64,000 nucleotides of DNA from Malacoraja senta (taxonomy: Eukaryota). A program made the position numbers and the translations under genes. Below the pieces are notes generated by a model, which was not told the origin of the DNA, searched no databases, and saw only the letters and a list, made by a program, of their open reading frames with translations. The DNA lies in the NCBI GenBank assembly GCA_038087875.1, contig CM075988.1:9178001-9242000 (forward strand), in the 5' to 3' direction. This document shows positions 38,085 to 39,649 of this stretch, piece after piece (the first letter of the stretch is position 1; every line of letters begins with the position of its first letter).

Positions 38085-38377
38085 AGACTTCAGAGATTCA
38101 GCGTGGAAACAGGCCCTTCAGCCCACCGAGGCCGGCCAACCATCGATCACACATACACTAGTTCTATCCTACAGGCTAGTGATAATTTACAGAAGCCAAT
38201 TAACCTACAAACCTGCACATCTTTGGAATGTGGGAGGAAACCGGAGCATTCGGAAAAACCCGAGTGGTCACAGGAAGAACGTGCAAACTCGGTACAGACA
38301 GTACCCATAGTGAGGATCGAACCCAGGTTTCTGGCGTTGTAAGACAGCACCCCTACCGTTGTGCCACTGTGCCTCCC
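38085..38377 (-). mobile_element. tRNA-derived SINE
   Basis: Family structure. Confidence 0.85.
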
Positions 38378-38410
38378 CTTGTGTTAAGATCTTTAGCTCA
38401 GTGCACCTCT

Positions 38411-38547
38411 TCTTCTTCTTGCGTATGGTGTGCACAGCCTAAATTTGTAAGACAACTTGTTCTGTTTGATCTTCCGTTTGTGCGTGCCAGGTTGATTGCA
38501 TTCATCGAAACAGGGTGGACCACGTGAAGGTTGCAATCTCCCACCCC
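38411..38547 (-). mobile_element. 137-bp non-autonomous retroposon (Vingi/Ingi-like short derivative) with 5' HDV-like ribozyme
   Basis: 11-bp TSD AGTGCACCTCT (38400-38410, 38548-38558); 3' end CATACGC(AAG)n; no tRNA head; 5' end is a ribozyme fold. Confidence 0.85.
38494..38547 (-). ncRNA. Minimal HDV-like self-cleaving ribozyme fold (catalytic C apparently mutated to U in this copy)
   Basis: Minus strand GGGGUGG-GA-GAUUGCA-ACC-UUCACGU-GGU-CCACCCU-G-UUUCGA-UGAA-UGCAAUC = P1 (7 bp with G1.U), P2 (7 bp), P3 (3 bp), consensus L3, short P4, J4/2. Confidence 0.85.
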
Positions 38548-39649
38548 AGTGCACCTCTGCTGGTCAAGAATCTACTAGGGAAACACAATTATTAACACGT
38601 AGCCACCACTACCTGGCATCTTTACCATCCATTAGCCCATGAGACTAGAGGTGGTAACGAACAGTCTGATCAGAATTGTGGCTATGAATCACTTTTCTTT
38701 CAGGCTATTGATACATTCAGAACAATCCTTGTTCCTATGAAGTTCAGGTCTGTATTCCTGAGCACTCCTGAGTATAGTGCATTCAATTTTAATTAGAAAT
38801 GTGCTCACTAAATGTTGAGCTTGCTATAGCCACGAGTGAGGAGAGGATGCATTGCTCTTCTTCATGTGGCACCAATGTTTTCTTGTTAGTGCCCACACAT
38901 GAAGGTTGCAAGGTCACAGAGGGTATTCATAGCAAGGAGAACAGGGGACAGAAGGGAAGAGGCAGGCTGCAGTAAATGGTCTTTGGCAGCATGATCTAAA
39001 ATTTGATTCAAAAAAATCATTGTATAACAACTGACAAATAACAATCAGTGACAACTGCGAAATGGAGGAGGAGGATCCAAAAACATCCTCACCCCTCAAT
39101 AATAATGGGGATAATATACGAGCTCTGAAGGCAAGGACAATGCATTTGTAACCATGAAATGTCAAAAAGATGACGACTCCTTTTCTTTCTGAGATGCACA
39201 CACCACCCACAAAAATGTCTTCAGTGCGATTAAATTGATGTGTTATCCAGAAAAAACTGAGACCAGACAATATTCAGGCTGTAGTACTAGAGATGTGCTC
39301 CAGACCAAGCCATGCTTCAAGCTAAGGTTGTTCCAGTCCAGTTACAACACTGAAATGTACCTGACAATTTAGTTTAGTTTAGAGATACAGCAGCTTTCAG
39401 CCCACAGTCCATGCTGGCCATCGATCATCTGTTCACACGAGTTCCCACTTTCTCATCCATCCCCTACACTGCACATTAGGGTTAATTTTACAGAGGCCAA
39501 CTAGAAATTTTCACGACTTTGCGACATTCCCCATTGATATTGCCTCTTCACAAGTAGTAGGTAAAATCCAATCTGACTAATCAGATCAATTTTCAATCAA
39601 TAACAAAGAGATGCAAGGTGTCATGGACAATGCTAGCAAATGACACTAA

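Follow-up and report, generated by a model that had tools for sequence, protein, structure and literature searches.

The 64,000-nucleotide (nt) stretch of the Malacoraja senta genome analysed here (the window; assembly GCA_038087875.1, contig CM075988.1, positions 9,178,001 to 9,242,000) contains one decayed, dead copy of a high-copy, non-autonomous retroposon of about 137 nt, belonging to the elements without long terminal repeats (non-LTR). The copy occupies minus-strand positions 38547-38409, carries a target-site duplication on both flanks and ends in the tail (AAG)4. Modelling of the head (nt 1-54) indicates that it is probably a minimal, essentially P4-less ribozyme of the hepatitis delta virus (HDV) type, lying wholly downstream of its cleavage site. 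We consider it probable that the source genes of the family carried this head as a catalytically active ribozyme, so that the element is best read as a ribozyme-headed retroposon. The retroposon is probably built from two RNA modules, the ribozyme (nt 1-54) and a stem-loop (nt 55-127) with (AAG)n, the latter being of the kind recognised by the reverse transcriptase of long interspersed nuclear elements (LINEs). The features of the window copy, all on the minus strand, are as follows.

38548..38558, minus: 5' target-site duplication; core AGGTGCACT at 38556-38548; 11 nt when read as AGAGGTGCACT, with the identical string at 38410-38400.
38494..38547, minus: predicted 54-nt minimal HDV-like ribozyme fold, inactive in the window copy (helices read from the sequence, alignment, descriptor, Rfam).
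38547-38541 with 38518-38512, minus: P1, GGGGUGG/CCACCCU, 7 bp, with the G1.U36 wobble.
38540-38539, minus: J1/2, within the 54-nt fold.
38538-38532 with 38500-38494, minus: P2, GAUUGCA/UGCAAUC, 7 perfect bp.
38531-38529 with 38521-38519, minus: P3, ACC/GGU, 3 bp.
38528-38522, minus: L3, UUCACGU, 7 nt.
38511-38505, minus: J1/4 and remnant of P4, GUUUCGA, within the 54-nt fold.
38504-38501, minus: J4/2, UGAA in the window, CGAA in the family consensus.
38504, minus: position of the catalytic cytosine in J4/2; T in the window, C within a CpG in the family consensus.
38421..38493, minus: 3' domain, nt 55-127 (folding of the consensus-like copy L011 and subfamily comparison).
38409..38420, minus: (AAG)4 microsatellite tail, read from the sequence.
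38400..38410, minus: 3' target-site duplication; core AGGTGCACT at 38408-38400; its first AG overlaps the tail register.

The boundaries of the window copy can be read directly. The first base of the element, G1, is position 38547; the preceding flank reads AGAGGTGCACT, and the minus-strand element then opens with GGGGTGGGAGATTGCAACCTTCACGTGGTCCACCCTGTTTCGATGAATGCAATC. CATACGC, the last base of which is 38421, closes the element about 73 nt downstream of the head. An earlier note on this DNA, made from the sequence alone, had described an 11-bp duplication abutting G1 at 38547. This duplication was seen; 9 nt of it are unambiguous, and 11 nt are obtained if the last AG of the tail, shared between the two, is included. 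The proposed length of 137 bp holds under one assignment of this overlap between tail and duplication and becomes 139 nt under the other. The window contains a single occurrence of the 36-nt head, and 100 shuffles contained none.

The same element is dispersed throughout the source assembly (1.94 Gb, 6,182 contigs). A similarity search returned 4,051 first-look candidates, 40 of which were scored. All 39 non-self scored matches are 94-96% identical to the query and begin at query positions 7-14, G1 being position 12. Exact pattern counts across the genome gave 3,628 occurrences of the 29-nt tail and 970 of the 25-nt head of one subfamily, and the reversed-pattern controls for head and tail gave 0 each. 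We fetched 30 loci from the similarity search and 19 further loci that carry the tail pattern and do not match the head pattern. Among the latter, one retains both ends around a foreign insert, two are 5'-truncated, and the other 16 run full-length, as members of a second subfamily or as variants. In total, 46 of the 49 independent loci run full-length from G1 to the tail (including one insert-bearing copy outside the 46-copy alignment), in agreement with the expectation that other copies would share both ends.

A duplication is detectable in 37 of 47 copies and directly abuts G1 in 35 of these 37; a few copies begin at G2. The duplications measure 6-14 nt, of which up to 3 nt may be overlap with the tail, the tails range from (AAG)2 to (AAG)10, and the flanks differ in every copy. 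In 32 of the 37, the duplication is readable as starting within the tail register, a pattern which suggests that insertion is primed where an AG-rich nick shares microhomology with the tail. The family shows what is expected of a retroposon mobilised by a LINE through target-primed reverse transcription: duplications of variable length, a repeat tail at the 3' end, insertions at dispersed sites and no open reading frame (ORF). The earlier description of a duplication-flanked, promoter-less family resembling short interspersed nuclear elements (SINEs), with its 5' end at G1 of an HDV-like fold, is borne out by these boundaries, which are uniform across copies.

The 54-nt head has the arrangement of an HDV-like double pseudoknot in a very compact form. 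The helices and the loop that had been read from the window alone, namely P1 with a G.U pair at the cleavage site, P2, P3 and L3, were each found in place. The P1 wobble G1.U36 is present in both the window copy and the consensus. In the consensus, the 3' strand of P2 is directly preceded by CGAA. P3 and L3 are followed at once by the 3' strand of P1, and P3-L3 lies in register with both Rfam HDV models. Moreover, the P3-L3 core, CCUUCACGUGG, agrees at 9 of 11 positions with the most conserved string of the R2 ribozyme, as quoted in an excerpt of PMC5035012. For P1.1, C22-G37 is the sole possible Watson-Crick pair, and the second position is U21.U38.

The alignment of 46 copies gave the consensus head GGGGTGGGAGATTGCAACCTTCACGTGGTCC(A/G)CCCTGTTTCGACGAATGCAATC. 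The catalytic cytosine, C44, is present in 42 of the 46 copies and is T in the other four, the window copy among them. The consensus therefore reads CGAA and holds the cytosine that had been predicted for 38504. This cytosine sits in a CpG, so that the U of the window copy represents ordinary CpG decay, as had also been proposed. The window copy is considered dead because of this U; its 3' stem is damaged as well.

Two subfamilies, A and B, were distinguished. Their consensus ribozymes differ at one position, A32G, by which the P1 strand reads CCGCCCU in B and the pair U5-A32 becomes U5.G32 and is kept. The consensus 3' domains differ by four substitutions and one 2-nt indel, all outside the predicted stems. 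The mean divergence from the own consensus is 1.9% in A (n=30; biased low by copy selection) and 3.7% in B (n=13). In both consensuses the catalytic cytosine is retained despite its CpG context. In addition, assembled contigs of four other runs, each with its own organism label (A, B, C or E), were compared, a source that is silent on RNA ends. The element is present there with unchanged boundaries and heterogeneous flanks, and the subfamily B form is the majority. Ribozyme variants reaching at least 5% of depth in these runs occur only at positions 32, 41, 42 and 45; they break no helix and leave the catalytic cytosine unaffected. At the sequence level, this variant pattern between subfamilies and runs is consistent with selection on source genes and falls short of proof by covariation. 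Differences among individual copies represent neutral decay and are uninformative for covariation. The search for compensatory changes in P1 and P2 gave one pair-preserving change between the subfamilies (A32G in P1) and no double compensatory change.

The fold was compared with chance by means of a home-made HDV descriptor, which was built from general consensus features of such ribozymes after the sequence had been seen. It demands a 7-bp P1 with G.U at position 1, J1/2 of 0-3 nt, P2 of 5-8 bp, P3 of 3 bp, L3 of 6-8 nt with a C for P1.1, a G after P1, and C-N-R-A directly before the 3' strand of P2. On 295,816 bases, both strands, the descriptor gave 30 matches, each at G1 of a family copy, and the family copies that it missed carry match-breaking mutations. 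On 37 Mb of first-order Markov sequence it gave 9 matches, or about 2.4e-7 per position, a rate that is optimistic because the descriptor was written after the sequence had been seen. It is very unlikely that such a fold starts at the first base of the retroposon by coincidence.

Rfam was searched with L011, a copy identical to the consensus. At E<=10 its only matches are HDV-F-prausnitzii (RF02682; 15.9 bits, E 0.29) and HDV_ribozyme (RF00094; 15.0 bits, E 2). Both models contain P4 and leave P2 unmodelled. Both alignments are end-to-end; P1 and P3 stay in register with the models, and G1 falls on the first paired G. At gathering level, Rfam gave no match anywhere in the window. The Rfam check suggested in the earlier note thus yields weak matches of the consensus-like copy to HDV families only, none of them near its threshold. 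Nested minimum-free-energy (MFE) folding of the 54 nt recovers P1 and P3 (z-score +0.59), and the MFE structure of the whole element uses P2 (z-score -1.09).

The 3' domain of L011 folds, in both the MFE and the centroid structure, into an 11-bp stem (nt 59-69/112-122) that encloses a 7-bp hairpin (nt 90-106) and is followed by single-stranded UACGC. In window coordinates, the long stem corresponds to 38489-38479/38436-38426 and the hairpin to 38458-38442 (minus strand); substitutions break three pairs of the long stem in the window copy. The 3' domain is presumed, from this model, to be the recognition module for the reverse transcriptase.

No promoter of RNA polymerase III (Pol III) was recognised in the element. 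The best A-box and B-box matches have 3 mismatches each and are equalled by 854 and 660 of 1000 shuffles, respectively, in line with the earlier statement that there is no Pol III box. In addition, no small-RNA family in Rfam (E<=10) matches the head, and ARAGORN called no tRNA. A strict SINE with a head derived from tRNA, 7SL, 5S or small nuclear RNA is ruled against by these results taken together.

The earlier note had further supposed that the family borrows a Vingi-like reverse transcriptase. This part found no support, in that exact-pattern searches of the genome and sampling of reverse transcriptases gave no LINE sharing the head or the tail. Patterns for the head followed by non-family sequence, set at three positions, gave 0, 85 and 81 matches with no recurring non-family continuation. 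Nearly all of the 85 and 81 matches are point or deletion variants of the family, with a few unrelated continuations; of the two that were fetched, L057 has no plus-strand ORF of at least 80 amino acids (aa) after the head, and L056 contains an insert of 72 nt that has a duplication of its own. For the tail, three anchors with non-family sequence upstream gave 40, 32 and 4 matches; the 3' domain lacking the ribozyme gave 13, and the head and 72 nt combined with another body gave 34, all of them heterogeneous indel or truncation variants of the family. A tail-only locus (L034), considered as the 3' end of a LINE, proved to be a 5'-truncated family copy with unique sequence upstream, and an (AAG)3 site in L027, considered as a trace of the partner, lies in unique sequence. 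A genome search with the RVT_1 domain returned 159,857 first-look candidates, of which 150 were scored; the 3' regions of five of the top-scoring matches contain no (AAG)n, and their readable tails are A-rich and L1-like. A diverged or very rare LINE could be missed by these searches, because the patterns needed exact matches. Since no LINE with shared ends was found, the element is not classed as an internal-deletion derivative of a known LINE.

These observations can be joined into a model of how the family would spread. A copy lying in any transcribed region would be co-transcribed by the host polymerase, its own promoter being absent. The ribozyme would then cut 5' of G1 and give the RNA a precise 5' end, as the fold and the uniform G1 ends suggest. 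A putative LINE endonuclease and reverse transcriptase, acting in trans, would prime on an AG-rich nick by microhomology with (AAG)n and copy the RNA up to G1, producing full-length copies whose duplications measure about 8-13 bp. Directly observed are these duplications, the tails and the full-length ends; the enzyme is postulated.

Several points weigh against the reading of the family as a ribozyme-headed retroposon. Cleavage is predicted from the fold and the uniform G1 ends. P1.1 is limited to one Watson-Crick pair, and activity would require that a linker of just 6 nt from P1.1 to the catalytic cytosine suffices. The Rfam scores of the consensus-like copy lie far below the gathering thresholds (15.9 against 44 bits for RF02682; 15.0 against 50 for RF00094), and the window copy has no HDV match at E<=10 in 601 nt of the window. 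The chance rate of the descriptor is optimistic for the reason given above. The nested-fold z-scores give no support, and as pseudoknots cannot be scored in this way they are uninformative in either direction. There is one U-A to U.G change and no double compensatory covariation, no partner LINE was found, and four copies with an inverted core, described below, still begin at G1. Several of these points also favour an explanation that dispenses with self-cleavage, in which the element is an ordinary non-autonomous retroposon and its uniform 5' end is set by transcription starting from an external promoter at a small number of source loci, or by a host nuclease. The HDV-like fold would in that case have arisen by coincidence or have a role other than catalysis, for instance as a 5' pseudoknot that resists exonucleases or as a module that binds protein. 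The four inverted-core copies, which begin at G1 and show a duplication of their own in three cases, are pertinent here: should they stem from source genes that were already inverted, their start at G1 would require no cleavage. Set against this are all the catalytic hallmarks in register (G.U at position 1, CGAA before P2, the CCU...CGUGG core around L3), the low chance rate combined with a match exactly at the first base of the retroposon, and the CpG-located catalytic cytosine kept in both subfamily consensuses. Moreover, the inversions, which occur in A and B types, fit sporadic template switching across the 7-bp P2 repeat better than inverted source genes. We regard both the non-cleavage origin of the 5' end and the non-catalytic or fortuitous nature of the fold as improbable.

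The ribozyme-headed retroposon could also have a parent in this genome, as an internal-deletion (bipartite) derivative of an extant autonomous LINE of the RTE or Vingi type whose termini it keeps as head and 3' end. Such a derivation is the usual origin of ribozyme-headed non-autonomous elements, being reported for RTE, Ingi, Vingi and R2 in an excerpt of PMC5786205, and both the duplications and the microsatellite tail are as expected of mobilisation by a LINE. The head searches gave no recurring non-family continuation, however, the searches with the tail and the 3' domain returned heterogeneous family variants, the clear tail-only locus has unique upstream sequence, and the five sampled reverse-transcriptase elements have no (AAG)n. 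We therefore hold this derivation to be possible and rather doubtful. It is distinctly unlikely that the family is instead a free-standing lineage, that is, a minimal catalytic RNA joined to a stem-loop that recruits reverse transcriptase, with no parent LINE, which has seeded several thousand potential self-cleavage sites across the transcribed part of a vertebrate genome and has been the source of exapted single-copy vertebrate HDV-like ribozymes. As for the window copy, every helix of its 54-nt fold is intact, which would suit an active ribozyme cutting the transcript of its own locus, but its catalytic cytosine is U at 38504. A C-to-U change at the catalytic cytosine of the HDV ribozyme abolishes activity, and we judge activity of the window copy to be extremely improbable.

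In four copies (L052-L055; G000:C1:279033179, C1:302236384, C6:2875813 and C3954:28820), nt 17-47, which lie between the two P2 strands, are inverted, with breakpoints exactly at the 7-bp inverted repeat GATTGCA/TGCAATC. These copies keep the G1 start and the (AAG)n tail, include A and B types, and show a readable duplication of their own in three cases (L052-L054). The inversions look like recurrent template switching across the P2 hairpin; the alternative is that the copies derive from an inverted source gene.

Other rearranged copies were also noted. L044 (G000:C1:5788492-5789306) and L050 (C1:29120900-29121500) each contain another repeat, which interrupts the same section of the 3' domain in both. 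The two inserts, of about 210 and about 700 nt, have terminal sequences in common, and the insertion in L050 follows ...CAAACAGAACAA. L011 lies within another abundant repeat (L011 1440-1500 and 1640-1700); contigs of other runs join L011 position ~1490 to ~1641-1644, skipping 150-153 nt, and thus represent paralogous "empty sites" of the host repeat. On unplaced contigs (G000:C1707:26300-32500, L063; also C2937 and C2652), a decayed copy of the family is repeated at intervals of 5,560 bp. The C1707 copy was considered as a source locus and set aside, being a decayed copy in a tandemly amplified unit with no recognisable gene within.

Three further elements lie outside the family. Directly downstream of the window copy, at 38130-38375 on the minus strand, lies the decayed remnant of a SINE that derives from a tRNA and has a conserved central core; ARAGORN no longer calls the tRNA there, and the sequence presumably resembles the SINEs of cartilaginous fish. 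A separate, single-copy HDV-like sequence is located at G000:C1:320228970-320229052 on the minus strand (L051 4971-5053). Its score against Rfam HDV_ribozyme is 43.8 bits, with a gathering threshold of 50 and E 9e-06 for the 111 nt searched. A full P4 is present, together with P1 GGGAUGC/GCAUCCU, P3 ACC/GGU, an 8-bp P2 and core motifs very close to the HDV consensus. The 5.15-kb stretch examined, about 5 kb of which lies downstream of this sequence, contains no ORF of at least 120 aa, and the genome holds no second copy. Finally, a young L1-like LINE family is represented by L058 and L061 (G000:C2:44047200-44050600 and C3:27877700-27881000) and is present at many other places; in many of its copies the reverse transcriptase domain lies within a common frame of 1,271 aa that is uninterrupted, and the 3' ends are A-rich.

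Some LINEs are already known to have their 5' ends processed by HDV-like ribozymes, as are a few non-autonomous elements that are low in copy number or belong to protists. According to excerpts of PMC5786205, PMC3383444 and PMC3414825, they define the 5' ends of R2, RTE, L1Tc/ingi and their non-autonomous derivatives, and RTE, Ingi, Vingi and R2 give rise to bipartite non-autonomous derivatives (excerpt of PMC5786205). Among the closest known systems are NARTc and RIME, the trypanosomatid partners of L1Tc and ingi, which carry Pr77/L1TcRz at the 5' end. In the excerpts of PMC3383444 and PMC5786205 they are short, ORF-less and headed by an HDV-like ribozyme, which releases the RNA from co-transcripts, and they are mobilised by a LINE in trans; for the present element, release and mobilisation would proceed in the same way. 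NARTc and RIME have both ends in common with a known LINE, poly(A) tails and a 77-nt head that is also a promoter, whereas for the present element no LINE was found with either end, and it has an (AAG)n tail, a ribozyme of 54 nt and a vertebrate host. It further differs from NARTc and the internally deleted elements known as SIDEs in the reduction of P4 to a 6-nt linker, in its very short length and in its very high copy number.

The R2 SIDEs of Drosophila, which are internally deleted R2 elements, likewise combine a 5' HDV-like ribozyme with a 3' untranslated region (UTR) bound by the reverse transcriptase and have no ORF (excerpt of PMC3414825). They are site-specific in 28S ribosomal DNA, low in copy number and clearly derived from R2. 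In contrast, the present family is inserted genome-wide, with its own duplication at each copy, and reaches thousands of copies. The RTE-derived Bov-A, WALLSI3 and RTESINE2 also consist of a short 5' and a short 3' part and have microsatellite-type tails, and an HDV-like ribozyme is predicted at the 5' end of some RTE elements (excerpt of PMC5786205). The RTE parent of Bov-A, WALLSI3 and RTESINE2 is known, whereas none was found for the present element.

With respect to the ribozyme itself, the metagenomic drz-Mtgn and the phage theta ribozymes share the double-pseudoknot core lacking a P4 domain, and minimal P4-less HDV-like ribozymes were first found in metagenomes, their origin being then unknown (excerpt of PMC10879173). 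These ribozymes come from metagenomes and phages, in which they lie beside tRNAs, whereas the present ribozyme heads a eukaryotic retroposon. The parts of the literature available describe no ribozyme-headed short retroposon in cartilaginous or other fish, the repeat collections Repbase and Dfam lying outside the search. If active, the head would be a eukaryotic HDV-like ribozyme that lacks P4 and is minimal by nature, at 54 nt, and would indicate that a SINE-like family can reach thousands of copies with a catalytic RNA at its head in place of a Pol III promoter. Intact sense copies in introns or UTRs could in that case cut host transcripts and be a source of variation in RNA processing.

The mammalian CPEB3 ribozyme is, like the present one, a vertebrate HDV-like ribozyme. 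It presumably shares with the present element the 7-nt L3, a one-pair P1.1 and a CGAA J4/2. The Rfam CPEB3 model has no match at E<=10 to the window copy (601 nt) or to L011, and homology is not demonstrated by this comparison. CPEB3 differs in being single-copy, conserved and intronic and in having a full P4, whereas the present element is a dispersed retroposon with P4 reduced to a remnant. The family also offers a concrete candidate route for the origin of solitary vertebrate ribozymes.

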